Source of the DNA: an uncultured Clostridia bacterium
Lineage (GTDB): Bacteria; Bacillota; Clostridia; Christensenellales; UBA1242
Reading direction: 5' to 3'
Assembly: GCA_944383375.1 (NCBI GenBank)
Contig: CALWPG010000004.1
Location: forward strand, 42,423 to 106,422
DNA: 64,000 nucleotides
Shown here: piece by piece, positions 2,633 to 50,663 of the stretch
Layout of the letters: each line of letters starts with the position of its first letter
Position numbering within the stretch: position 1 is the first letter of the stretch
Notes under the pieces: model-generated
What the model was told of the DNA's origin: nothing
Seen by the model: only the letters and a program-made list of their open reading frames with translations
Databases searched by the model: none
Made by a program: the position numbers and the translations under genes

Positions 2633-3061
2633 ATGAACGAAAAATTTTTAAATGAAATTTACAAAAATACAAAAATGGCAGTGCAATCAATTGAAAATAT
2701 GTATCCAAAATTTAGAAGCACAAAATTAAAGCAATTTATGAAAAAGGCTCAAGAAAAATATTTGGATTTTATGCAGCAGTGTAAAAAAATAGCAAAACAA
2801 AAAAAACTGGAACTTAAAGATGCCAGTTTCTTTTCCAAAACCATGCTTAAAATGTCAATTGGAATGTCAACACTATTTGATAAGTCAAGTGAACATATTG
2901 CAGAGCTATTTTTAATGGGTACAGTGAGAGGCACATTGAGTTTATACAAAGAAATAAAAACATACAAAGATGCTGACAAAGACATAGTTGACCTTGCAAA
3001 AGATTTGAAGACATTTGAAGAGCAGAGTTTTGAAGAAATAAAAAACTTTTTACAAGAATAA
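2633..3061 (+). CDS. Hypothetical helical protein
   Basis: 142-aa ORF with AGGAG upstream. No motif recognised. Confidence 0.4.
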   Translation: MNEKFLNEIYKNTKMAVQSIENMYPKFRSTKLKQFMKKAQEKYLDFMQQCKKIAKQKKLELKDASFFSKTMLKMSIGMSTLFDKSSEHIAELFLMGTVRGTLSLYKEIKTYKDADKDIVDLAKDLKTFEEQSFEEIKNFLQE

Positions 3062-3062
3062 A

Positions 3063-3977
3063 TTATAGTTTTGATAAATAACTTGTAATAGATGTGGAAG
3101 CTATTGCCCCATCGCTGCATGCAGTAACAATTTGCCTTAGATTTGTGTCACTGACGTCACCCCCAGCGAACACACCTTCAATATTGGTGTGTTTTTTTTC
3201 ATCAACCTCTATATATTTTGATGAGTTTAATTTCACACCATCAAAAACATCAGTATCTGGTTCTCTTCCAATTGCCACAAACAATGCATCAACTTCAATT
3301 GAAGATATTTTATTATTAAGTTTGTTTAATATATTGATTGATCTTACTTTTTCATCTCCAGAAATCGCAACAACTTGACTATTTAAAATAAGTTCAAGTT
3401 TCCCAGATTTTTCAAATTGCTTTAACCTATCCACTAAAATTTTATCACCACGAAATTCATCACGTCTGTGAATTAAATAAACTTTTTTTGCAATGTTTGC
3501 AAGATATAAGCAATCTTCCAAACTCGTATTGCCACCTCCAACAACTGCAACGACACAATCTTTATACAATGCCCCATCACAAGTAGCACAATAACTTACT
3601 CCTTTGGACGTAAACTTCTTTTCACCCTCTATACCAAGAAGTCTACTGCTTGCACCCGTTGCAATGTATACGGTTTTGCCCTGGTAGGAATTTTTATCGG
3701 TGTTGACAACCTTCACTTTTCCTGTTAGGCTGCAAGAAATAACATCTTCAAAAACAACATCTACTCCCATATTTGTTATTTGTTCAAACATTTTATTTGA
3801 CAATGTTGCACCATCAATTTGTTCAATTCCGGGATAGTTCTGAATATTGTGCGTAAGCACCATTTGCCCACCTGGCATACTACGCTCAATTATCAAAACA
3901 CTTTTGCCTGCCCTTTTCAAATATAATGCACAGGTCATTCCACTTGGACCACATCCTATAATTATACAATCGTACAT
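3063..3977 (-). CDS. trxB: Thioredoxin-disulfide reductase
   Basis: GCGPSG FAD motif and CATCDG redox centre. Start moved to MYDCIIIGCGP (ATG at 3977), because the track start adds a hydrophobic non-homologous extension. Confidence 0.9.
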   Translation of the reverse strand: MYDCIIIGCGPSGMTCALYLKRAGKSVLIIERSMPGGQMVLTHNIQNYPGIEQIDGATLSNKMFEQITNMGVDVVFEDVISCSLTGKVKVVNTDKNSYQGKTVYIATGASSRLLGIEGEKKFTSKGVSYCATCDGALYKDCVVAVVGGGNTSLEDCLYLANIAKKVYLIHRRDEFRGDKILVDRLKQFEKSGKLELILNSQVVAISGDEKVRSINILNKLNNKISSIEVDALFVAIGREPDTDVFDGVKLNSSKYIEVDEKKHTNIEGVFAGGDVSDTNLRQIVTACSDGAIASTSITSYLSKL

Positions 3978-4516: not shown

Positions 4517-4959
4517 TAGTTTCTAACTCCTTTTAGTGCAACTTGCACAGGTTTTTGTGCTTCATGAGAATGGTTTGCATCCTTGTAAACTTTGAGTCTT
4601 GTGAACATCTTTCTTCCAAGTGAATTTTTAGGAAGCATACCTTTCACAGCATGTTCAACAGCAACATTTGACTTTGTTGCCATGACAGTTTTGTAATCCA
4701 TCTCCTTAAGTCCACCAGCATATCCTGAGTGGCTTCTGAGCATTTTTTGTGTTAATTTTTTACCAGTTAGTACCACTTTGTCTGAATTTATAACTATAAC
4801 GTGGTCACCAGAATCAACATGTGGTGTGTAAGTTGGTTTGTTTTTTCCACTAAGGATATCAGCAACTTGAGTTGCAAGTCTTCCAAGTGGCATGTTAGTA
4901 GCATCTACAATATACCATTTTCTTTCCACATTTTCTGGTTTTTCCATAAATGTTTTCAT
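4516..4959 (-). CDS. rplM: 50S ribosomal protein L13
   Basis: [20 protein letters not shown]..., with GGAGGAAAA just upstream of the ATG at 4959. Confidence 0.95.
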
Positions 4960-5876: not shown

Positions 5877-5984
5877 GGTTCTAGTTTAAAACAAAATGTG
5901 TATGTTTGCAAATGATTTTACACAAACAATTTTATGTGTTAAACTCAAAATGTTTAAACATAATATACCTAAGGGAGCCTAATA

Positions 5985-8900
5985 GTGAGAAAAAGTTTAA
6001 TTATGGATGGTAATACTGCATGTGCAGATATGGCATATAACTTTACCGACGTTGCCGTTATTTATCCAATCACCCCATCCTCACCCATGGCCGAACTTGT
6101 CGATAAGTGGTCAAGTGAAGGCAAAAAAAATATATTCGATCAAGAAGTCATGGTAAAGCAAATGCAATCAGAAGCAGGTGCCAGTGGTGCACTTCATGGT
6201 CTCAGCCAAACGGGATCACTTGCCACAACTTTTACTTCAAGTCAGGGTTTGCTTTTGATGATACCAAACATGTATAAACTGGCTGGACAATGCTTACCCG
6301 CCGTAATTCACGTAGCCAGCAGAGCGCTTGCCACACATGCACTTAGTATATTTGGAGATCACAGCGATGTCATGGCAACAAGAAGTACTGGTTTTTGCAT
6401 GGTGACTTCAACAAATGTACAAGAATGCTATGATATGGCTCTTTTTGCTCATGTAATGGCGCTTAAAAGTAGTTTGCCTTTTATGCATTTTTTTGATGGA
6501 TTTAGAACAAGCCATGAAATGCAAAAAGTCGCAATTTTGTCACAAGAAGAAATAAAATCCATGTTTCCTTTTGAGAGTTATCAAAACTTTAAACAAAGAG
6601 CTCTTACTCCTTCTAGCCCTATCGCTCGTGGAACAGCGCAAAATCCTGATGTGTACTTTCAAAATAGAGAAAGGAATAATCAGCTTTATGACGATATTGA
6701 AAATTTAGCCACCCAAACTTTTGAACAGATTGAAAATCTTACAGGTAGAAAATATAGTGCCTTTGAATACTATGGTGCAAGTGATGCTGAAAATGTTGTA
6801 GTTATAATGTGTAGTGGCTATGAGACTATTAAAGAGTATGTCAAATATGCAAACAGCATGGGAGAAAAACTGGGTGTTGTCAATGTACGCCTTTTTAGGC
6901 CTTTCTTTTCAAAACAATTTGTTAATGTAATGCCAAAAACCACAAAAAAGATAGCAGTACTTGACCGAACAAAAGAATATGGAAGTGTTGGCGAACCACT
7001 TTACGAAGACGTAAGTTGCGCAGTAAATGAACACAAACTAAACATAGATATTTTGTCAGGAAGATATGGACTTGGCGGTAAAGAGTTTGACATATCTTGT
7101 GCAAAAGCAATCTTTGACAACCTAAAAAATAAACAAAGCAAAAATCACTTCACCGTGGGAATTGTCGATGATTTGTCCAACACGTCGCTTAAACTTGAAA
7201 ATTTACAATTAGATGAACGATGCTATGAGATGAAATTTTATGGACTAGGAAGCGATGGAACAGTAAGTGCAAATAAAAGCAGCATTAAAATTATTGGAGA
7301 GAACACAGACAAATATGTGCAAGCATTTTTTGAGTACGATTCAAAAAAGTCTGGGAGCCTAACCACATCGCATATCAGAGTGTCAGACAAGCCTATAAAC
7401 AAACCTTACAAGCCTAAAAGTTATGACCTTATTGCCATACACAACTTCACATATGTATCAAGATATAATTTAATTGACGATTTAAAAGATAACGGAATTG
7501 TGCTTTTAAACACGCGTTTTACAGACGAAGAACTAGAAAAAGTTTTGCCTCATGAATTTTTAGAAAACTTAAATAGACATCATGCAAAGTTATATGTTAT
7601 AGATGCACAAAAAATTGCAAATGAAAATGGCCTGGGCAGAAAGGTAAACACAATAATGCAAACTGCATTTTTTAAAATAGCTGGTATTGGAAATTTTGAG
7701 AAAATACTATCCCAAATAAAAGAAAACACAAAAACGGCATATCAAAAAAAGGGTGACGATGTTGTCGCTAAAAATTTCAAGTGCATAGACCTTGCAGTGG
7801 AAAGTGTCAAAGAAATTGACTATTCTAGATTTTCATACACAAAACTAAACACCATTAAAGCCAAAACGGGAAATGAATTTTTTGATAATGTCATATCCGT
7901 GATAGAAGACCTCAGTGGCGATAGTTTGCCTGTTTCCACATTTAACAAAGATGGAAGTATTCCAACCAAAACATCAAAATATTTAAAGCGAGGAATAGCC
8001 ATTAGCCTTCCTAAATGGATAAAAGAAAACTGCATACAATGTGGCAATTGCACGCTCGCCTGCCCTCATAGTGCCCTTAGAAGTTTGCTTGTAAAAGACA
8101 AAGATGCTGATGATAGTTTTGTCAATGCATTTGGCACGAAGGATCATAAATTTAAAATTCAATTAAGTCCATTAGATTGTACAGGATGTGGTGTATGTGC
8201 AAACACTTGCCCTGCGATAAAGAAAGCTCTTGAGATGGTTGACTTTGAAAAAATAGTAGAAAAAGAGCAAAAGAATTATGAAAATTCACAAAAAATTGAT
8301 AGATATGCATCAATTTTCAAAAAAGAAAGTTCAAAGGGTCTACAATTTTTTGATCCCTATTTTGAATTCAGTTATGCATGTGCGGGATGTGGCGAAACAC
8401 CTTACATTAAAATTTTAACACAACTTTTTGGTGATAAAATGCTGGTCGCAAATGCGACTGGATGCAGTAGCATATATGGTGGTTCTTACCCAGTTTGTCC
8501 TTACGCAAAGGACAAAAATGGACATGGTGTCGCTTGGGCGAACTCTTTGTTTGAAGACAATGCAGAATTTGGCTATGGCATGGCGCTTAGTCAAAAGCAA
8601 AATCAAAAAATGCTTTTCACACTTATCACAAAAATTTTGAATAAATGTGATGAAAATATTGCCAGTTTACTAAATAAATTCATTTCTGAAAAAACATTAA
8701 GCTATGACGAACAAAAGCAAATTATTGATTTTGCAAATACAAAAAGGGATGATGTGGACTTTAAATTTTTGCTTTCTCTTTCAGACAATTTAGTAAAAAA
8801 ATCAATATGGATTATAGGTGGAGATGGTTGGGCATATGACATTGGATATGGTGGCCTTGACCATGTCCTATCAAGTGGAGAAAATGTGAATATTCTCGTC

Positions 8901-42741: not shown

Positions 42742-43536
42742 TTATGGTCCAGTTGGCCCTGTTGGTCCGGTTGGTCCCGTCGCACCAGTTGGTCCCGTTG
42801 GACCAGTTGCACCTGTCGCTCCTGCCGGGCCAGTTGGTCCTGTTGCGCCTGTGGCTCCTGCCGGACCGGTTGGTCCCGTTGCCCCTGCTGTGCCTGCTGC
42901 TCCAGTTGGGCCCGTAGGGCCTGTGGCTCCAGTTGTTCCTACAGTTCCTGCTGGTCCGGTAGCTCCTGTGGCACCGGTTGGACCTGTTGTGCCTTGTGGA
43001 ATGGTTAGGTTCAAGAAAAAGTTTGGCGCAGTTCCCGTTATAGTGGCTGCTGCTGTAGTTCCTGGCGCTCCCGTTGTTACGGTACCAATGGCAAATATTG
43101 GTGTAACACCAGTTGCTCCAGTAGCTCCAGTCGCACCAGTTGGACCCGTTGCACCAGTCGCTCCCGTTGGACCTGTTGGTCCCGTTGCCCCTGCTGGACC
43201 GGTAGCTCCAGTCGCACCAGTAGCGCCGGTTGGACCTGTTGCGCCTGTGGCACCAGTTGTACCTTGTGGCCCTTGTATTCCCGCAAAACCTTGAATACCT
43301 TGAATTCCTTGAGGTCCCTGAGCACCAGTTGGTCCAGTTGCTCCTGTAGGACCTGTAGCACCGGTAGGTCCGGTTGCACCTGTTGGTCCTGTCGCACCTG
43401 TGGAAGGACCAGTTGGGCCTGTTGGACCGGTTGGACCTTGTGGACCACGTTGACCAGTTCTCACCGTATTTGTTACAAAAATGCTTTCGCAACAAGGTGG
43501 TGGTGTATTATTACAATTACATGGCATCGTGTTCAT
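42742..43536 (-). CDS. Collagen-like triple-helix-repeat (GXT) protein, BclA-like
   Basis: Frame gives GPT/GAT triplets. N-terminus is [16 protein letters not shown]. The likely true start is ATG 43527 (MPCNC), 9 nt after AAGGAG. The five other long ORFs over this span are repeat shadows. Confidence 0.8.
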
Positions 43537-43619
43537 CTCCTTTTATTAGTGTATTCATTTCATTGTATGTTTGATAATTCAATATTGTTAAATTATTTGA
43601 ATTATTTAAATTTTGTGTT

Positions 43620-44120
43620 ATGATTATAAACATGAAAGTAAAAACAAAACAATGTAATAGTAAGATGTGCATAGTTTGTGGCTTGGAAAACCCAAACAGT
43701 TTAAAAGCACCTTTTTACGAAATGGAAGATGGCAGTGTGATAAGCATATTTGAATTTAAGGAAACTCATCAAAGTTACCCAGAACGCACTCATGGTGGTT
43801 TAATTACCGCGATGCTGGATGAACTTGGACTTAGGTGCATATGGCCAATTGAGAATACTTTTGGTGTGACAATGGAAATAACTACAAAATTTAGAAAACC
43901 AGTTCCTTACAACCAAAAACTCAAAGGTATTGGCAAAGTAATTTCAAACACACCAAGATTTATTCAAAGCCATGCAGAAATTCTAGATTTGCAAGATAAC
44001 ATTTTGGCAGAGGCAAATATTAAGTACTTAAAATTTCTTACAGATAAAATTGTTTTAAGTAATGTAAACGCAGAAGAACATAATATTTTTGTACCTGATG
44101 ATGTGAAAGAAATAAATTAG
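43620..44120 (+). CDS. PaaI/hotdog-fold thioesterase
   Basis: N-terminal CxxC, then HGGLITAMLDELG, typical of the PaaI family. The start is uncertain (43620 or 43632). Confidence 0.65.
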   Translation: MIINMKVKTKQCNSKMCIVCGLENPNSLKAPFYEMEDGSVISIFEFKETHQSYPERTHGGLITAMLDELGLRCIWPIENTFGVTMEITTKFRKPVPYNQKLKGIGKVISNTPRFIQSHAEILDLQDNILAEANIKYLKFLTDKIVLSNVNAEEHNIFVPDDVKEIN

Positions 44121-44162
44121 ATATTTACATTGATGAAATTTGAGTGTATAATAGGAGTACAA

Positions 44163-44609
44163 ATGAAAGTTGTAAAGTTTGTAAAAATTAATCAAGATGC
44201 AATAATACCAGATTATGCTCATGAGGGTGATGCTGGAATGGACCTGTACAGTGTCGAAGACACAGTCATTGAACCTAACACTTTAAAGAAAGTTAATACT
44301 GGGCTCGTGATTGAACTTCCTAAAAACACAGAAGCGCAAGTTAGAAGCAAGAGCGGTATTGCACTTAAAAGCCAAGTGTTCGTTCTCAACTCACCTGGCA
44401 CTATCGATGAAAATTATCGTGGTGAAATTGCTGTATTATTGTACAATTTGGGAAAACAAGCCTACGAAGTAAAGAAAGGTCAAAAAATTGCACAACTTGT
44501 AATAAATGAAATTTGCTATGTAAAAACAAAAGTTGTTGAAAATGTATCTCAAACTACACGTGGCGAAGGTGGATTTGGCTCAACGGGGTTAAAAAGGAAC
44601 AAACAATGA
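44163..44609 (+). CDS. dut: dUTP diphosphatase
   Basis: GDAGMDLY, NSPGTIDENYRGEI and RGEGGFGSTG motifs. Start set to MKVVKF. Confidence 0.9.
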   Translation: MKVVKFVKINQDAIIPDYAHEGDAGMDLYSVEDTVIEPNTLKKVNTGLVIELPKNTEAQVRSKSGIALKSQVFVLNSPGTIDENYRGEIAVLLYNLGKQAYEVKKGQKIAQLVINEICYVKTKVVENVSQTTRGEGGFGSTGLKRNKQ

Positions 44610-46369
44610 ATTTTGCAAAATTAAATGATAAATATTACGTTTTATTTTCTTTTCCATACAAAAATGAAGAAGTTTTTGTTTGCAGAGACAAAGTCAATCT
44701 TTTGTACTCTTTTTTTAAATTTGTTGACGATGACTTTATTAAAATCAAATCACCAACTCTTGACAAAATATTCAAACCGAACACAGACCCAATAGTTTAT
44801 AGCGTATCAAAATATCCGGCAAATTTTTCAAAAATTAACTTTGAACAACTCAAATCAACAGCAATTGATTTGATAAAAGATATGACCAATAATTTTTCTG
44901 CATACATACAAAATATTATAGAAAATAATTTAAAAAATGTTGTGATAAGGGTAAAAAAAATTGGAAGGACAAATGTTTCAGCTGAGTACGATGGCGAAAC
45001 GAATACTATAACCATAGATGAAATTGAAATTAACAAAATGTCAGATAAACTGTTATTGCACACTTTTTTCCATGAGATGCTTCATTGTGCATCGGCAAGT
45101 TTTTATGCTTCAAAATCTGGTTTTAGGAGTAACAACGTCATAAGCTTTAAGAGTGGAATAATTTTTAATCAATATGAAAACACATATTTTAATGAAGCTT
45201 ACACAGAACTTATGGCACATAAATACTATCCTGTTAAACCACGAAGTTATGCTCTTGTCACATCTATGCTTGACACAATTTTAAAATTTTGTGATCAGGA
45301 TAAAGTTAAAGAATACTACTTTACAAACGATAATCAAAATTTGGTTAAACATTTACAAGAGGTCTTTCATCAACCACAGAGCGAAATACGAAAGTTACTT
45401 CTTTTATTTGACGTCTGTGATGAGACTTTTAACAAAACTGTAAGAGACGAGCGCTTTAATCTACGTGAGATTATCTTATCAAGTTACTCAACACTTGTAA
45501 ACTTAGTCTCAAAAATGATCATTGACAAATACAGAGCTGAAAATAAAGATTTAAAACAATTAAATTTTTACTCAATATTTGTCAATAGATTGAACTCAGA
45601 GTTACCAAGTGATGTTAAAAATGCAGTAAATTATTGTCTCGATAAATCACAGAGATTTTTTGAATATTACTTAAACAATAACTTTGAGAACAAAACTGAC
45701 CAAATTGACTATGTGATGTTCCCTTACTATAAAAAAATTTTTATTGAAACTTTCGCTCAAGGAATTCCCCTCCCCCCTTCTTTCCCTGAAAGATACAAAT
45801 GTTTTGAAATTTATCAGCAGGTACTTTCAAATAATACAGAAATCGGAAACAAAAAGGGATGGTACACAAAAGAGTCGGTATTTAAAAATTTATTTGACGA
45901 AAGATTCAACTATTTACCAAAAGATGAAGACAGGCGCCTGCATGTCATTTACCAATATTTGACCATAATGAATGATTTTAAATTTGATATAACCAAGTAT
46001 TTAAACAAAGACCAGGTTATTGCAGTTTTAAAAAAGAGCCCAAACATTTTTAGATCCTTGTGTGCTAGTAATATTTACTATATGCTTGACATACAAAAAG
46101 ATTTACCTTCTCAAATGCAGGCGTCAGAATATTTTTATGTAGGTATTATAAAACAATTGTTAAAAGAAAAAAATCAAAATTCATTGGAAATATTATCAAA
46201 TTATTTTAATAAAATAGATGTAAAAACCCAAAATAAAATGCTATATTCAAGTAACTTTTTAGCAATACTGGAAAAAAGTAAGCTTTTAGATGGTGAAAAT
46301 TTAGAAAAATTTATATATAACGCAAAATTGACAGCTAGCCAAAACTTTACTGATGAATTCACTATATAA
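44606..46369 (+). CDS. Large hypothetical protein with an HExxH motif (putative Zn-metallopeptidase-like)
   Basis: 587 aa. FFHEMLHCA appears at about residue 155. Its start overlaps the dut stop (ATGA). Confidence 0.5.
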   Translation: MNFAKLNDKYYVLFSFPYKNEEVFVCRDKVNLLYSFFKFVDDDFIKIKSPTLDKIFKPNTDPIVYSVSKYPANFSKINFEQLKSTAIDLIKDMTNNFSAYIQNIIENNLKNVVIRVKKIGRTNVSAEYDGETNTITIDEIEINKMSDKLLLHTFFHEMLHCASASFYASKSGFRSNNVISFKSGIIFNQYENTYFNEAYTELMAHKYYPVKPRSYALVTSMLDTILKFCDQDKVKEYYFTNDNQNLVKHLQEVFHQPQSEIRKLLLLFDVCDETFNKTVRDERFNLREIILSSYSTLVNLVSKMIIDKYRAENKDLKQLNFYSIFVNRLNSELPSDVKNAVNYCLDKSQRFFEYYLNNNFENKTDQIDYVMFPYYKKIFIETFAQGIPLPPSFPERYKCFEIYQQVLSNNTEIGNKKGWYTKESVFKNLFDERFNYLPKDEDRRLHVIYQYLTIMNDFKFDITKYLNKDQVIAVLKKSPNIFRSLCASNIYYMLDIQKDLPSQMQASEYFYVGIIKQLLKEKNQNSLEILSNYFNKIDVKTQNKMLYSSNFLAILEKSKLLDGENLEKFIYNAKLTASQNFTDEFTI

Positions 46370-46433
46370 AACCCCTAATTCAACAAGTCAACTTGCAAAC
46401 AATTTTATTTTGTTTGGCTCGTTGACAAAACTT

Positions 46434-46508
46434 GCGTCCATGGTGAAATGGATATCACATAAGTCTTCGGAACTTAGATTTCGGGTTCGAGCCCTGATGG
46501 ACGCACCA
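46434..46508 (+). tRNA. tRNA-Arg(TCG), CCA encoded
   Basis: Acceptor GCGTCCA/TGGACGC, anticodon arm TAAGT-CTTCGGA-ACTTA, T arm TCGGG-TTCGAGC-CCTGA. Confidence 0.85.
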
Positions 46509-46540
46509 AAAAATTAAGCAAGTCCTATTTTGACTTGCTT
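46509..46540 (-). terminator. Terminator of the RiPP operon (hairpin shared with the tRNA-Arg 3' flank)
   Basis: Minus-strand AAGCAAGTC-aaaatag-GACTTGCTT followed by AATTTTTT. It begins 1 nt after the rSAM stop codon. Confidence 0.7.
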
Positions 46541-46541
46541 A

Positions 46542-48281
46542 TTATTTTAACAGTTTTTGAAGATATTGCTGAACTTTATCTCTTGTCAATTTATACTGGC
46601 TAGATTTTTCTGATGACGAAACGCATTCTCCTCCCAAATGCGTAAAAGTTTTTTTGCTCATTTGGTTTTGATTATTTATATTAAAATAAATCTCATTAAA
46701 TTGCTGATAAGATGGATAATAAAATATATATTTTATAATTTCCAAGATGAGTCTTGTATTTTTAACTTGTTTAGATAGTTGGACTTCATTAATAAATACC
46801 TTTTCTCCTTTTTCAATAATAACAAAGCCACAAATCTTGCCATTATTATATATTATTATAAAGTCATTGTTTTCATTTTGGGCATTTGTATATACATTAT
46901 TTTTCCAAATTTTACCATCATTTTCGGTTACATTATAACCAAGTTCGATCATATTGTCTTTTATTATCTCAAAGCACAAGTCCAATTGATATTCTGATAA
47001 AAATTTTTCATGATGAAATTTAAAGCCTTTTACAAATTTATTGTAGATTTCTACTCCCAGTTCACAATAAAAATTTGAAGGTATTTCATAAGATCCTGTT
47101 GATAAATAAAATTTTGCAGGACAATATCTGCACAGAGAGATATAGGGACAATTTCTGCATTTTGCTTTTTTAGAATACAATCTAGTTTTTATCTTTTGAA
47201 GATTGTATACGCATTCCAATAAATTTCCTTTTTTGTAAACCTGATATTCATTTTGTAGACAAACACACATACAAACATGCAAAGAAGAATCTATAAATAG
47301 TGAATCATCATTTTGTTTACACTTAAAAATGCGATCATTCTGTTTTGTCTGGCTGAAAATTTTTAAAAATTTTTTTCCAGCATTATTTTGCTTTGACAAA
47401 TAACTTATAATTTCGGGTACGGATATTTGTTGGGGATTTATTTTTTGACACTTGCCCATTTGGGGAAAAATTAAATAATCTGATCTAAAACTATTATTAA
47501 ATTTTTTAGAATATGCTTTAATTTTGTCAAAATATGACTTATTTAAATTCGAAATTATACTCTTTGTTTTAACATCAATACCTTTATTAATTAACATTTC
47601 AATATTTTTATCAACAGTACAAAACGAATTTTTTATTCCAGTAAATTCACTATAAGAGGTTTCATCATATCCGTATAATGATACTTCTATAGAATATGGT
47701 TTATATTTGCTCAAGCAATCAAGAATTTGTTTAGTTAAATTATATCCATTTGTATTTAAATTGATAACAAAGCCCTGTTTATATAAATACTTATATATTT
47801 TTATAAAATCTTTATGAATAAAAATTTCACCACCAGTCAAGGTTATAAAATTACATTTAGCTCTTTTTAATTCTTTTGCTAAACTGACTATATTTTCATA
47901 AGTTATATATTTGATTTTATTTTTATCCACATAACAATGAGAACATCTAAAATTACATACATTAATAATTTCTATCAGACAACTTTTTACATATAAAAAA
48001 GAATTTTTATAATTAATTTTTGTCTTTGACTTCACAAAGCCACCTTTAATCAATAAATACAAAACACTATTTCTGATTTTAAGACTTTCAATTTTACCAC
48101 AATGAAAGTATTCTTGTATGCATTTTATAACCTTAGTCATTGATAAACCCTGAAGAATCAAATTTGCTACAACGGCATTCTTCTCATCAAAAATTATATA
48201 ATTACCGTTACGATTATCATAAACTTCAAAACCTTTATCGTGATTTTTAATACATACATCATCGTTGATTTGATATTCCAT
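46542..48281 (-). CDS. Radical SAM/SPASM peptide maturase with an N-terminal PqqD-like RRE and a C-terminal GNAT-like domain
   Basis: CNFRCSHC (CxxxCxxC), SPASM CRNCPYISLCRYC, and an N-terminal ~90 aa wHTH-like region (NAVVANLILQGLSMTKVIKCIQEYF). Start reset to MEYQINDD (ATG 48281, AGGAG RBS). The track start overlaps the intergenic hairpin. Confidence 0.85.
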   Translation of the reverse strand: MEYQINDDVCIKNHDKGFEVYDNRNGNYIIFDEKNAVVANLILQGLSMTKVIKCIQEYFHCGKIESLKIRNSVLYLLIKGGFVKSKTKINYKNSFLYVKSCLIEIINVCNFRCSHCYVDKNKIKYITYENIVSLAKELKRAKCNFITLTGGEIFIHKDFIKIYKYLYKQGFVINLNTNGYNLTKQILDCLSKYKPYSIEVSLYGYDETSYSEFTGIKNSFCTVDKNIEMLINKGIDVKTKSIISNLNKSYFDKIKAYSKKFNNSFRSDYLIFPQMGKCQKINPQQISVPEIISYLSKQNNAGKKFLKIFSQTKQNDRIFKCKQNDDSLFIDSSLHVCMCVCLQNEYQVYKKGNLLECVYNLQKIKTRLYSKKAKCRNCPYISLCRYCPAKFYLSTGSYEIPSNFYCELGVEIYNKFVKGFKFHHEKFLSEYQLDLCFEIIKDNMIELGYNVTENDGKIWKNNVYTNAQNENNDFIIIYNNGKICGFVIIEKGEKVFINEVQLSKQVKNTRLILEIIKYIFYYPSYQQFNEIYFNINNQNQMSKKTFTHLGGECVSSSEKSSQYKLTRDKVQQYLQKLLK

Positions 48282-48295
48282 AAAAACTCCTGCAT

Positions 48296-48323
48296 AAGAA
48301 AAAGAAGTGGTATGCCCACTTCT
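48296..48323 (-). terminator. Intra-operon hairpin attenuator between precursor and maturase
   Basis: Minus-strand AGAAGTGG-gcata-CCACTTCT followed by TTTTCTT. Confidence 0.45.
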
Positions 48324-48328
48324 AAATA

Positions 48329-48406
48329 CTAACAAGCATCTTGTCCATTTGCTACTTGCCAGCAACCATCATCAAAACTTTCTGAATTGTTAATGTTAAT
48401 AACCAT
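48329..48406 (-). CDS. Candidate RiPP precursor peptide, 25 aa (not in the ORF track)
   Basis: MVININNSESFDDGCWQVANGQDAC. AAGGAGG lies 6 nt upstream. An in-frame ATG at 48412 would give 27 aa. Sits 47 nt upstream of the rSAM gene. Confidence 0.65.
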   Translation of the reverse strand: MVININNSESFDDGCWQVANGQDAC

Positions 48407-48424
48407 ATGCATCCTCCTTTTATT

Positions 48425-48453
48425 AGTATAGCAAACTTAAATAAAAATGTCAA
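48425..48453 (-). promoter_or_regulatory. Near-consensus sigma-A promoter of the RiPP operon
   Basis: Minus-strand TTGACA (48448-48453), 17 nt, TATACT (48425-48430). Confidence 0.65.
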
Positions 48454-48491
48454 CTATTATAAATAAAGGAATGAGCTAAGTCGCCAAATAC

Positions 48492-49001
48492 CTAAATAAT
48501 AAACCTATTGTTATTCAAAATTTCCATATATGATTGCTCTATAGTCAGGTGGCTCGTATCTAAAATATTATCGTCGCTAAAATTCTCATCCTTCATCTCT
48601 TGCAATAAAATTAATGACCTTTCTCCCATTTGACAATCAATTGGTCTTAATTTGTCTCTTTGAACAATAGTTGCTTCGTCGACCATCGAACAAACAAATT
48701 TAATTTCACAAAAGGGAAAATTTTGTTTTATATCTTTAATTTGTTCCTTATCTAAGACATAATTAAAGACCACATCAAAACCTTCTTTGATTGAATTTTC
48801 AATTATGCTTTTACAATTATTCCAAAACAATCTCAGATGATTGCCTTGCTTCCAGGGACTGACATAACCACCCACAACAAGGTTGTATATTTCGTCACCT
48901 TCAATCAATATACTTTTTTCTAAATTTTCTGCAATTTTTTTTGAAATTGTGCTTTTCCCAATGCCTGCAGTACCTGTTATTAAAAATAGGGATATTGCCA
49001 T
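48492..49001 (-). CDS. P-loop NTPase/kinase-like protein
   Basis: Walker A GTAGIGKST. Small kinase-size protein of 169 aa from MAISLFLITG. Confidence 0.6.
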   Translation of the reverse strand: MAISLFLITGTAGIGKSTISKKIAENLEKSILIEGDEIYNLVVGGYVSPWKQGNHLRLFWNNCKSIIENSIKEGFDVVFNYVLDKEQIKDIKQNFPFCEIKFVCSMVDEATIVQRDKLRPIDCQMGERSLILLQEMKDENFSDDNILDTSHLTIEQSYMEILNNNRFII

Positions 49002-49015
49002 CTTCAGTTGGAGCG

Positions 49016-49222
49016 CTATTTGTGACTGAAAGTTAGACAATCTATTTGGCTTTCTCCTCGTTCTATGCCTCCCCCGACCATAGATATTTCATTTTTTTTA
49101 TTATTTTTTATTAATAAAATTTTTCCATTTCTTTCACATATTCCAAAACATGTCTCTCTAAAATCGAATTTTTGGTTATCAAATTTTTCGCCTATTGTTA
49201 TTACTTCCATATATCCATCCAA
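49016..49222 (-). pseudogene. Truncated NUDIX hydrolase remnant
   Basis: The 68-aa ORF contains only the start of a Nudix box (GGGIERGES), then a stop. The REXXEE part is missing, and the remnant abuts the P-loop gene. Confidence 0.5.
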
Positions 49223-49300
49223 GTTATTTATACCACATTAAATCGCAAACAGGCAAATATGTTTTAAAAAAATCGAGCACCAGAAAGCACCCGATAATTG

Positions 49301-49918
49301 TTATTTAATTAATTCTTCATTAAATTTAATTGAGTCTTTATAAATATTTTTTTCAATTTCTTTTGCATATTTGTCTTTAAGCTTAGGTTTTGAAAGTGTT
49401 TCGTATAGTTTTTCAAGTGAATTGATAAGATCTTGAGGCACATTATCACGTTTTGTATCAATGATATATGAGCCCACTTTATTGTGATTAACATGTTGCT
49501 GACGAGGACAATAGTACTCATCCCAATAAGGATCAAAATTTTCATCATAGTACATATCAATGTAAGTGATATCACCCAAATAATCTTCAATGATTCCTGC
49601 AAAAATTTTGTTATACTTGTCTTCTTTGTTTACCTTGATAAGGCGTGCTAACAATTTTACAAGCTTTGAATATGATTCTAATCTATCTTGTTCTTTTCTA
49701 TACAATTTTTCATATTCTTTTTTTCTTTCCAAAGTATTTACTAATTGACATTTAACACCATATTCAAGTCTTTCTTTGATAACTGCTTCCTCAAATAGAT
49801 AAACCAAGTCTTCTTTTGATAAATCTTTAAATTTAACTTTGCCTGTTTCTCTTAATAAATTGTCCTCATCTTTGAACATTTTTACGTCGTATAAATATTG
49901 CTTGTTAAACTTTCTCAT
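49301..49918 (-). CDS. Hypothetical protein
   Basis: 205 aa from MRKFNKQ (AGGAG RBS). Charged and helical. No motif recognised. Confidence 0.45.
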   Translation of the reverse strand: MRKFNKQYLYDVKMFKDEDNLLRETGKVKFKDLSKEDLVYLFEEAVIKERLEYGVKCQLVNTLERKKEYEKLYRKEQDRLESYSKLVKLLARLIKVNKEDKYNKIFAGIIEDYLGDITYIDMYYDENFDPYWDEYYCPRQQHVNHNKVGSYIIDTKRDNVPQDLINSLEKLYETLSKPKLKDKYAKEIEKNIYKDSIKFNEELIK

Positions 49919-49982
49919 CAATAATCTCCTATCATTAACAATATGATTTAAATGTATCATAGTTTACACTCAAAGTCAATAC

Positions 49983-50462
49983 TCAACTGTCAATTTCATG
50001 AAAGTCATGGCTTAGCATATTCATATTATTGTCAAAAGCAACTTTCCCCACAAAGTGCTTTCCTTCAAGCGCCATAGGTAGCCACAAAAGATCATCGGCA
50101 AGCATTTTTTCATATGGTATTTTATCTATATCGTACCACCTTGGAAACATTTCCTCGGTTTCCACAATTTCACCATCAAACTTTGTACAAGTGTAGATAT
50201 GCATGTACATATTCACATGCTCACCCTTGTACCATACGTCAAAATGAATTTTGCCTATCAGGGCATAATCTACAGGAGTTGCACCAATTTCCTCTTGGCA
50301 TTCTCTTACCATTGCCTGGTCAATGGTTTCACATTCGTCCTGCTTGCCTCCTATGCCATTTAATGTGCCTTTTGCAAAACCCCTTTTCTTTTCGCCAAGT
50401 AAAATCTGATTGTCTTTAAAAAATAATGTAAGTGTTGTGTTTATTGTTCTTAATTCTTCCAT
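49983..50462 (-). CDS. NUDIX hydrolase (MutT-like)
   Basis: Complete Nudix box GIGGKQDECETIDQAMVRECQEEIG. Confidence 0.85.
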   Translation of the reverse strand: MEELRTINTTLTLFFKDNQILLGEKKRGFAKGTLNGIGGKQDECETIDQAMVRECQEEIGATPVDYALIGKIHFDVWYKGEHVNMYMHIYTCTKFDGEIVETEEMFPRWYDIDKIPYEKMLADDLLWLPMALEGKHFVGKVAFDNNMNMLSHDFHEIDS

Positions 50463-50663
50463 ATATTCCTCCTAAAAAAAATGTTTTTTGCTGTTGAATT
50501 TACCTCCTTTTTTTTCTACGACAATTTTAACAGCAAATAAATTGCGTATCAAGATTGCCATTCTTAGAATATAAATTCTCACAAAAAACGCAAATTGGAA
50601 TGGTCGAATAAAATGCATTATTATGCTATCATTTTTTGACAATTTTGTCAATAACAATAATAT

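Follow-up and report, generated by a model that had tools for sequence, protein, structure and literature searches.

The DNA analysed here, hereafter the window, is a stretch of 64,000 nucleotides (nt) from an uncultured Clostridia bacterium (Christensenellales, UBA1242; contig CALWPG010000004.1 of assembly GCA_944383375.1, positions 42,423 to 106,422), and our analysis concerns a two-gene cassette on its minus strand. We are nearly certain that this cassette is a real system for a peptide that is ribosomally synthesized and then post-translationally modified (RiPP), in which a small open reading frame (ORF) of 25 amino acids (aa) is a genuine precursor gene and its neighbour encodes a maturase that joins an RRE (RiPP recognition element), a radical S-adenosylmethionine (rSAM) core, a SPASM-type domain and a GNAT fold in one polypeptide. 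Our results, drawn from sequence comparison, further lean modestly towards a distant relative of the thioether-forming system of the sporulation killing factor (SKF), with tailoring in cis by the GNAT domain, while the more specific proposal that the Cys of a Gly-Cys-Trp motif is linked to the residue eight positions further on (+8) stands at about even weight. The elements of the cassette are as follows; all coordinates are those of the window and lie on the minus strand unless marked otherwise.

48425..48453, minus: sigma-70-type promoter (TTGACA 48453-48448, 17-nt spacer, TATACT 48430-48425, TG extension (TGc))
48413..48419, minus: Shine-Dalgarno sequence AAGGAGG of the precursor gene, 6 nt 5' of ATG 48406
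48329..48406, minus: precursor peptide gene, 25 aa plus stop, 78 nt, encoding MVININNSESFDDGCWQVANGQDAC
48293..48323, minus: intergenic stem-loop plus T-run, directly after the peptide stop (stem 48323-48303, 8 bp, GC-rich)
48287..48291, minus: Shine-Dalgarno sequence AGGAG of the maturase gene, 5 nt 5' of ATG 48281
46542..48281, minus: maturase gene, 579 aa plus stop, four domains (stop codon at 46542-46544)
46515..46541, both strands: bidirectional intrinsic terminator with a 10-bp stem, directly after the maturase stop and also 3' of the convergent tRNA-Arg
46434-46508, plus: tRNA-Arg(tcg), convergent to the operon

Conservation of the precursor peptide beside the maturase

Homologue contigs were retrieved and species-representative genomes were also scanned for loci. 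Among 5.8 billion clustered proteins, 24 are close homologues of the maturase, each of metagenomic origin, and the window protein is 100% identical to metagenome protein P0001. In each of the 22 distinct loci with an intact enzyme and flanking DNA, a co-oriented small ORF that contains Cys-Trp and ends in Cys adjoins the enzyme, and this pairing holds down to about 30% enzyme identity; the 25-aa Cys/Trp precursor gene that a sequence-only reading of the window had proposed is thus borne out, and homologues without a conserved neighbouring ORF, which would have spoken against it, are not what is observed. Indeed, the pattern [GAS]CW-x6-13-C-stop has 25 matches in the six frames of 271 kb of related loci, all of which lie on the enzyme strand and adjoin the enzyme. 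Compared with orthologues whose enzyme is 73% identical, residues 11-20 of the peptide are identical also at the DNA level, the remaining core shows two synonymous changes and the conservative replacement Q22E, and the leader shows 3-4 replacements.

In the window peptide, the leader spans approximately residues 1-13 and is followed by the core G-C15-W16-Q-V-A-N-G-Q-D23-A-C25; no Lys is present, and the sole amine is the N-terminus. The peptides of the family were grouped into classes, of which examples are given below.

Class A (short leader): MIINITNTERFDDGCWQVANGEDAC; MVKFYGEVQESMSDGCWQIGGGSDC; ...SGCWGVGGNDESSC; ...DGCWNVGGQDYDC; ...SACWQIGGNTEC
Class D: ...MACWNGGNDDNAGPTC; ...SGCWNGSGDNAGPNC
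Class B (long leader): ...KKIYMGCWKQSYAENDGDGC and relatives

The window peptide is absent from a collection of 15 billion proteins and has therefore never been called as a gene, the sole deposited annotation of one class B peptide is "hypothetical protein", and the peptides have no match in NCBIfam or Pfam. Note that the locus L020 (Ca. Enterousia), considered as a peptide-less counter-example, is not a valid test, its contig being probably a chimeric or truncated assembly; at about position 3900 of this contig, GC-rich alphaproteobacterial DNA (ribosomal protein L27 gene) turns AT-rich approximately 40 nt before a frameshifted maturase start.

The expression signals are in place as well. The promoter scores 11/12 and is the top-ranking site within 46300-48700; both the promoter and the AAGGAGG sequence described in the sequence-only reading are recovered, and GGAGG-type sites likewise precede the peptide ATG in orthologous loci. 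A second in-frame ATG lies two codons upstream (48407-48412) and would add Met-His to the leader (MHMVIN..., 27-aa ORF); we prefer the start at 48406 because this upstream ATG abuts the Shine-Dalgarno sequence, and the orthologous peptides begin M-[VI]-I-N, consistent with this choice. For the maturase, whose gene follows after a spacer of 47 nt, the earlier resetting of the start to ATG 48281 is likewise retained over the 607-aa ORF with a TTG start, because Met1 is invariant in 23 homologues. Terminator-like sites number 4 in the cassette region against 0.5 expected. One of them closes the unit after the maturase stop (46541-46515), as had been noted, and the hairpin between the two genes is a putative leaky terminator or attenuator. 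The idea of such an element fits the family, since a hairpin with a T-run directly 3' of the peptide stop was found in most of 20 spacers folded, their sequences being unrelated and the structure kept; this recurrence speaks for an attenuator or terminator that is conserved between the two genes.

Domain architecture of the maturase

Domain assignments rest on family profiles and on structure, Radical_SAM being the only domain recognised in single-protein Pfam and NCBIfam searches, and the four domains are delimited as follows.

48009..48281, minus: domain 1, RRE (PqqD-like winged helix), residues 1-91, from profile, SkfB alignment, split genes and model
47382..47990, minus: domain 2, radical SAM core, residues about 98-300, with C109-x3-C113-x2-C116
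47022..47327, minus: domain 3, SPASM-type auxiliary-cluster domain, residues about 319-420, with seven invariant Cys
46545..47009, minus: domain 4, GNAT fold, residues 425-579, from profile, Foldseek, Pfam on relatives and split genes

In the Pfam search of the window enzyme, Radical_SAM matched (PF04055, 1.2e-20, a match shared by 23/23 members), and SPASM, PqqD and GNAT had no Pfam match. The SPASM model PF13186 has no match in the window protein at E <= 1 and matches 1/23 members, at 0.0045; similarly, the window protein has no Pfam GNAT match at E <= 1, and Pfam GNAT models match only 3-4 divergent family members, with 4.1e-7 as the best value. NCBIfam gave partial matches only, with no model above its cut-off; AhbD and MoaA are the top ones, and WgkB, MftC and PqqE are also among them, the last two spanning the core and the SPASM domain.

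The family-level evidence nevertheless supports all four modules that had been read from the letters, and the two refuting outcomes named for its ends, an N-terminus that is no RRE and a C-terminus that is no GNAT fold, are not seen. The profile of residues 1-91 matches the lasso-peptide RREs TfuB1 (1.9e-6) and TbiB1 (1.6e-5), and the modelled domain shows the beta3-alpha3 topology. The motif CNFRCSHC occupies residues 109-116, in which C109, C113 and C116 are invariant in the family alignment. In domain 3, the motif CRNCPYISLCRYC at residues 375-387 has the spacing CX2CX5CX2C, one residue short of the canonical CX2CX5CX3C, and the invariant SPASM-type Cys are 321, 339, 375, 378, 384, 387 and 406. 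Such a seven-Cys pattern (C..C, then CX2CX5CX3C, then C) characterises SPASM domains, in which it binds two auxiliary [4Fe-4S] clusters. By analogy with anSME and CteB, three of these (C321, C339, C387) would map to auxiliary cluster I, in which one coordination site may thus stay open, as it does in the sactisynthase CteB (PMC6231123). The AlphaFold2 model built from the family alignment has a mean predicted local distance difference test score (pLDDT) of 91.4 and a predicted template-modelling score (pTM) of 0.85, and the best PDB matches of the whole model in Foldseek are the peptide maturases SuiB, CteB and SkfB, of RRE-rSAM-SPASM/Twitch build, followed by anSME; those to SuiB, CteB and anSME extend over about 440 columns. 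The same search returned the GNAT structure 8osp_A at E 1.6e-7 (TM 0.64), and the profile of residues 425-579 matches more than 30 GNAT structures, of which the best are N-alpha-acetyltransferases (Naa40-like 4ua3 at 2.5e-5, RimI at 2.3e-4, and Naa50).

Natural split versions of the system show that the modules belong together:

L022/L023: enzyme lacking the N-terminal domain, with an 88-aa PqqD gene directly upstream, after the peptide
L011, L012, L013: GNAT as a separate adjacent ORF
L032: four genes in the order peptide, PqqD, rSAM-SPASM (350 aa), GNAT (169 aa)

Overall, the PqqD domain is a separate gene in three loci (L022, L032, L033) and the GNAT in four (L011, L012, L013, L032). The L032 peptide, at 47-247, has a third Cys in its core (MGCWQGCNEDNGGDGC), and its N-terminus MKKRNQ resembles the MKRNQ of SkfA. 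An exhaustive profile search of 1.84 billion representatives returned no more than about 20 clusters in which all or most of the fused architecture is present, and this architecture is therefore rare. Beyond these clusters, many relatives of approximately 350 aa contain rSAM-SPASM only and belong to no curated family; they were considered as members of a named family, which none of them is, and the nearest are split versions of the same system. The representative search also returned P0110 (842 aa), in which two stretches match the rSAM-SPASM core, with strong double matches to several rSAM/SPASM maturase models, and which looks like a tandem double-rSAM fusion. According to the records, the hosts of the family are uncultured gut metagenome-assembled genomes of Clostridia/Christensenellales, Bacilli and Mycoplasmatota.

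A proposed register shared with SkfA

SkfB is the closest solved relative of the maturase by sequence (9.3e-10 in a single-sequence search). With the family profile, the match reaches 1.4e-21 over query positions 23-262, covering the RRE and the core; the next match is MoaA at 4e-11, and none of CteB, SuiB, PqqE and anSME reaches 1e-3 in this search. The SkfA sequence was confirmed by exact look-up (SKFA_BACSU), its core being C1-M-G-C4-W-A-S-K-S-I-A-M12-T-R-V-C16... In SKF, a thioether joins the sulfur of Cys4 to the C-alpha of Met12, and Cys1 and Cys16 form a disulfide; SkfB is strict for the donor Cys4 and tolerant at the acceptor, where the hydrogen is abstracted at C-alpha (PMC8172795, PMC6231123). 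The core alignment of the new family comprises 21 peptides and was anchored on the Cys-Trp pair, which gives the following composition.

Position -2: Met 10, Asp 7, Ser 4
Position -1: Gly 19, Ala 2
Positions 0 and +1: Cys and Trp, invariant
Position +8: Asn 10, Asp 6, Glu 2, Tyr 2, Ala 1 (N/D/E 18/21)
Last residue: Cys, invariant, at +9 to +13 (SkfA Cys16 at +12)

Among the interior positions, +8 is chemically the most uniform. SkfA carries its thioether-donor Cys4 in M-G-C-W, with the acceptor at +8 and a further Cys at +12; the M-G-C-W motif recurs in the new family, which has a conserved Asn/Asp/Glu at +8 and its last Cys at +9 to +13. This alignment supports a register, common to SkfA and the new peptides, of a Gly-Cys-Trp donor Cys and a +8 acceptor. 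Among the products that the sequence-only reading had left side by side (sactipeptide or ranthipeptide thioethers, or a Cys/Trp crosslink), the homology to SKF thus favours the thioether.

Proposed working of the cassette

The genes, signals, domains, co-conservation and homology above were observed directly, and from them we infer all of the chemistry and regulation that follow. One promoter would drive the 25-aa precursor gene, and the hairpin with its T-run probably passes only part of the transcripts into the maturase gene, leaving the peptide in excess over the enzyme. The leader, with its alternating-hydrophobic and strand-prone N-terminus, would be bound by the N-terminal RRE of the maturase, after which the radical-SAM cluster and the SPASM auxiliary clusters would cross-link the core. 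By homology to SkfB and SkfA, Cys15 of the G-C-W motif would donate its sulfur to a carbon of the +8 residue, Asp23 in the window: a 5'-deoxyadenosyl radical would abstract a hydrogen at this residue and the C-S bond would then form. The expected product is a nine-residue thioether macrocycle, equal in ring size to the Cys4-Met12 ring of SKF, in which the bond could be made either to C-alpha (sactionine) or to C-beta (ranthionine, as with the Asp/Asn acceptors of PapB- and NxxC-type systems). The invariant C-terminal Cys could act as a second donor or stay as a free thiol. The fused GNAT domain would then probably transfer an acyl group to the peptide; the N-terminus, as the only amine of the window peptide, fits the N-alpha-acetyltransferase matches of this domain. 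Finally, maturation, export and the biological role would rely on functions outside the cassette.

The GNAT domain and its truncated relatives

Taking Q/R-x-x-G-x-G/A as the criterion for GNAT motif A, the pyrophosphate-binding loop, the window sequence K-N-T-R-L-I aligns to Q-R-K-G-V-A of RimI with both glycine positions substituted. Other class A members read K-[GN]-[ST]-[RK]-x-[IL] and P0022-P0024 read Q-G-x-x-x-[IT], the signature glycines being likewise absent. Several polar residues are invariant, namely E499 (beta4), N539, S542 and H548 (motif B) and Y563, and these argue that an active site is maintained.

A subfamily of approximately 500 aa keeps only an N-terminal stub of the GNAT and retains the peptide. 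In L029/L030 (7756-8409), where the maturase has this stub, the next downstream gene on the same strand belongs to the chloramphenicol-acetyltransferase family (PF00302), which could be a coincidence or a replacement acyltransferase.

Other loci have intact ORFs of 221-260 aa, which comprise the end of the SPASM domain (CxxCx5CxxC...C) and the whole GNAT, the RRE and rSAM core being deleted:

L014: 3875-4657
L015: 4016-4681
L018: 3920-4654
L019: 3920-4630
Also P0053 and P0103

These ORFs are mutually 40-50% identical and, judged by this identity, seem to be kept up and not to be products of recent decay. Among these core-deleted loci, L014 has a degenerate peptide (MVIEIKINKKLFTVSSYCWNFGRSEESSC, Tyr at -1) and L015, L018 and L019 have none; the GNAT module may thus have a role of its own in these ORFs.

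Weighing of the alternatives

Several observations weigh against an Skf-like thioether system with acyl tailoring and have to be set beside the homology. In SkfB, a Twitch domain holds a single auxiliary cluster (PMC6231123), whereas the new enzyme has a full seven-Cys SPASM domain; the alignment to SkfB ends at residue 262 of the window enzyme; and the NCBIfam SkfB model TIGR04403 (rSAM_skfB), with a cut-off of 300 bits, gives a score of 43.5. By structure, the best match is not SkfB but SuiB (E 3.5e-15 over about 440 columns), a Lys-Trp C-C cross-linker. With regard to the peptides, many of the 21 are closely related, and N/D/E is found at +8 in about 7/9 independent lineages; three peptides have Tyr or Ala at +8; hydrophobic acceptors are reportedly preferred by SkfB, against the acidic and amide residues found here; and a single Cys-to-+8 thioether leaves the invariance of the Trp and of the terminal Cys unaccounted for. 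In addition, both signature glycines of motif A are missing from the GNAT domain, and its reduction to a stub in the subfamily of about 500 aa means that acylation cannot be essential to the core chemistry.

One alternative is a Trp-centred cross-link in place of the Cys-to-+8 thioether, either as a C-C cyclophane such as those of streptide, WGK or triceptide systems or as a Cys-Trp link (e.g., from the C-terminal Cys to the indole, the other Cys being secondary) that closes a variable loop of 9-13 residues. An invariant Trp stands beside an invariant Cys, the C-terminal Cys is always the last residue, and the intervening loop, variable in length and rich in Gly, Asn and Asp, fits a flexible tether; both the structural match to SuiB and the presence of WgkB among the partial NCBIfam matches point in the same direction. 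However, SuiB is undetected by sequence at E <= 1e-3 as against 1e-21 for SkfB, the peptides conserve neither Lys nor Arg nor another of the usual sp3 partners, the C-W pair of SkfA has its Trp un-cross-linked (PMC8172795), and the searchable literature yielded no Cys-Trp link made by an rSAM enzyme. The third residue of W-x-x is Gly, without C-beta, in class D peptides, which rules out the triceptide (aromatic-x-x) version. We thus regard a Trp-centred link as unlikely. Far less probable still is that the small ORF arose by chance beside a non-RiPP rSAM enzyme, either a viperin with a P-loop kinase neighbour or an enzyme of the heme or molybdopterin type. The PADLOC pVip models do match residues 104-249 (1.9e-15), a P-loop protein is encoded immediately upstream, and AhbD and MoaA head the partial matches; yet all these matches are confined to the generic rSAM core and fall far below the family cut-offs, viperins have no RRE, seven-Cys SPASM or GNAT, and the peptide is conserved at every testable locus, a result that, with the comparison of the neighbourhoods, already refutes this reading. 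The core-only match, together with a kinase-like neighbour that is conserved in no other locus, rules out a defence role as pVip plus kinase.

The remaining alternatives concern the GNAT domain and the fate of the product rather than the cross-link. A GNAT fold that is not an acyltransferase but a docking, folding or oligomerisation module, or that uses a donor other than acyl-CoA, is not exclusive of the thioether chemistry, and we consider it possible, if doubtful. It would account for the loss of the motif A glycines in every member, for a window domain below every Pfam GNAT threshold and for the stub in one subfamily that keeps its peptide, and the core-deleted ORFs persisting at 40-50% identity hint at a role independent of the peptide. 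Against it, the polar residues at positions of GNAT catalytic type are invariant, divergent members pass Pfam GNAT models at 4e-7, the unfused domain is kept as an adjacent gene in four loci, which is typical of a pathway enzyme, and active N-alpha-acetyltransferases with a deviant motif A exist (e.g., R-G-R-N-V-G in 4ua3). Activity as an acyltransferase is slightly favoured. As for fate, the product may stay inside the cell as a peptide-derived cofactor, a redox or metal-binding molecule or a signal (like PQQ, mycofactocin or SCIFF), which is compatible with either chemistry. A minimal pair resembles SCIFF systems, none of the 26 neighbourhoods has a conserved gene for export, proteolysis or immunity, the final residue never varies, like the C-terminal Tyr of mycofactocin, the partial MftC and PqqE matches run across core and SPASM, and the core is acidic, thiol-bearing and rich in Gly, Asn and Asp. 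We still hold this fate to be quite unlikely: the MftC model has a cut-off of 265 bits and reaches 58.5, neither partner oxidoreductases nor further genes of a cofactor pathway are conserved, a patchy, rare and repeatedly decaying cassette in a low-GC accessory setting is more typical of dispensable accessory traits, and the nearest homologue SKF is an exported toxin (PMC8172795). A combination of these ideas can be put forward only tentatively and at low probability, namely an undescribed RiPP chemistry that needs the Cys-Trp pair and a free C-terminal Cys (a tryptathionine-like link or a ring dependent on the C-terminal Cys), with acyl transfer coupled to it in cis through a GNAT whose cofactor site is non-canonical, and a product that would serve within uncultured gut Firmicutes as a signal, a cofactor or a ligand (thiol or metal) and not as a bacteriocin; the intracellular role is proposed here because an exporter or protease is never linked. 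Altogether, the distant Skf-like thioether system with an added GNAT domain is the reading that we retain.

Genomic setting

Clustering of all neighbouring ORFs at 26 loci showed that only the enzyme and the peptide are conserved, with no conserved protease, exporter or immunity gene, so that what had been remarked for the window extends to the whole family. The operon is the lowest-GC 1.9-kb stretch of the window (25.3% vs 34.5 ± 3.7%) and sits in a low-GC stretch of about 6 kb beside the tRNA-Arg(tcg) gene, where an islet had been suspected; the low GC and the tRNA proximity fit an accessory islet. GC is low (24-32%, against about 36-42% in the flanks) at about 43600-50500, where, besides the operon and the tRNA-Arg gene, the window encodes a 4HBT thioesterase and a dUTPase, a P-loop kinase-like protein of 182 aa, an ORF of 219 aa without family, a NUDIX protein that matches the PADLOC candidate PDC-S07 at 1.2e-11, and a 587-aa ORF with an HExxH motif (FFHEMLHC) and a weak SprT-like match. 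None of these neighbours is conserved beside the cassette in other loci, and the convergent 587-aa protein, considered as the missing leader peptidase, was rejected since it is conserved in no other locus.

Of about 22 loci, 4 have a convergent tRNA gene within approximately 35-350 nt downstream of their maturase gene:

Window: tRNA-Arg, 46434-46508
L004: tRNA-Met, 3024-3100
L007: tRNA-Lys, 5942-6017
L014: tRNA-Ser, 4853-4940

The tRNA identity is different in each of the four loci, and all other neighbours differ too. This recurrent proximity may mark insertion of the cassette close to tRNA genes; an integrase was not seen. Farther away, a BclA-like protein with collagen-like G-x-T repeats is encoded at 42742-43536 on the minus strand (Pfam Collagen, 1.2e-28), at a local GC peak of 51.6%. 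Its repeats create long spurious ORFs in other frames and on the opposite strand, and in L002, too, a gene with collagen repeats lies some 2 kb away from the cassette.

Comparison with known systems

Neither the enzyme nor the peptide is covered by any family of NCBIfam, Pfam or PADLOC, and an rSAM-GNAT fusion of this kind was not found in NCBIfam or among the Pfam architectures inspected. The literature search, with subscription-only papers outside its coverage, found no rSAM-GNAT fusion, GCW-type precursor or rSAM-made Cys-Trp link, and neither GNAT nor acetyl is mentioned in a compendium that lists about 15,000 RiPP rSAMs (PMC10288494). These results fit the earlier suggestion that an rSAM-SPASM-GNAT fusion is an undescribed architecture. 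The building blocks and the likely chemistry are of known kinds, and what is new is the family itself, previously unannotated, with a four-domain maturase for which no other description was found. Its link to SKF matters, as an M-G-C-W donor and a +8 register yield a precise cross-link hypothesis, and with two genes in about 1.9 kb and a 25-residue substrate with a single amine, the cassette offers a compact model for the handover of a peptide from an rSAM enzyme to a tailoring domain. In addition, its hosts are uncultured low-GC gut bacteria (Christensenellales-like Clostridia, RF39-like Bacilli and Mycoplasmatota) whose secondary metabolism is almost unexplored, and rSAM–GNAT fusions would become a new handle for genome mining if the GNAT is active.

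With regard to other RiPP enzymes, ranthipeptide systems (SCIFF, PapB/freyrasin with Cys-Asp, NxxC with Cys-Asn) likewise use an rSAM/SPASM maturase on a small Cys-containing peptide. Asp and Asn acceptors joined through C-beta are the rule in ranthipeptides, and these acceptors resemble the conserved +8 Asp/Asn/Glu of the new family; SCIFF cassettes are minimal pairs of peptide and maturase in Clostridia, without an exporter. In contrast, the spacing is C-x3-D in ranthipeptides and C-x7-[DNE] here, ranthipeptides have many Cys whereas the new peptides have one CW-type donor and a terminal Cys (usually two Cys), and ranthipeptide systems have no GNAT. The PapB model is not among the 25 NCBIfam families listed for the window enzyme and matches the relatives of about 350 aa weakly. 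The streptide maturase SuiB/StrB shares with the new enzyme the RRE, rSAM and SPASM build and a substrate with an invariant Trp; unlike streptide, the new peptides have no conserved Lys and no KGDGW-type (KxxxW) motif, and SuiB has no GNAT. Acetyltransferases that act on the N-terminus are known from RiPP clusters, such as GodH and MdnD. Reviews present the GNATs of RiPP clusters as separate enzymes only, e.g., the selidamide fatty-acyl GNATs and PasC of a daropeptide cluster, the gene lying beside that of an rSAM maturase in one case (PMC10849128). In the new family, the GNAT is instead fused to the C-terminus of the rSAM/SPASM enzyme in most members, and its motif A is non-canonical.

The comparison with SKF remains the closest. 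SkfB and the new enzyme share the domain order of RRE, rSAM and auxiliary-cluster domain, to which the new enzyme adds a GNAT that SkfB does not have. The partners of skf (the protease/cyclase SkfC, the exporter SkfE/F, SkfG and the thioredoxin SkfH) have no counterpart conserved beside the new cassette. The new peptides have no Cys at -3, unlike SKF with its disulfide Cys, and they end at the last Cys, so that no tail is left for a head-to-tail cyclisation as in SKF. Finally, the acceptor position is Met in SKF and polar or acidic in the new family, and the hosts are Bacillus for the former and uncultured gut Clostridia, Bacilli and Mycoplasmatota for the latter.

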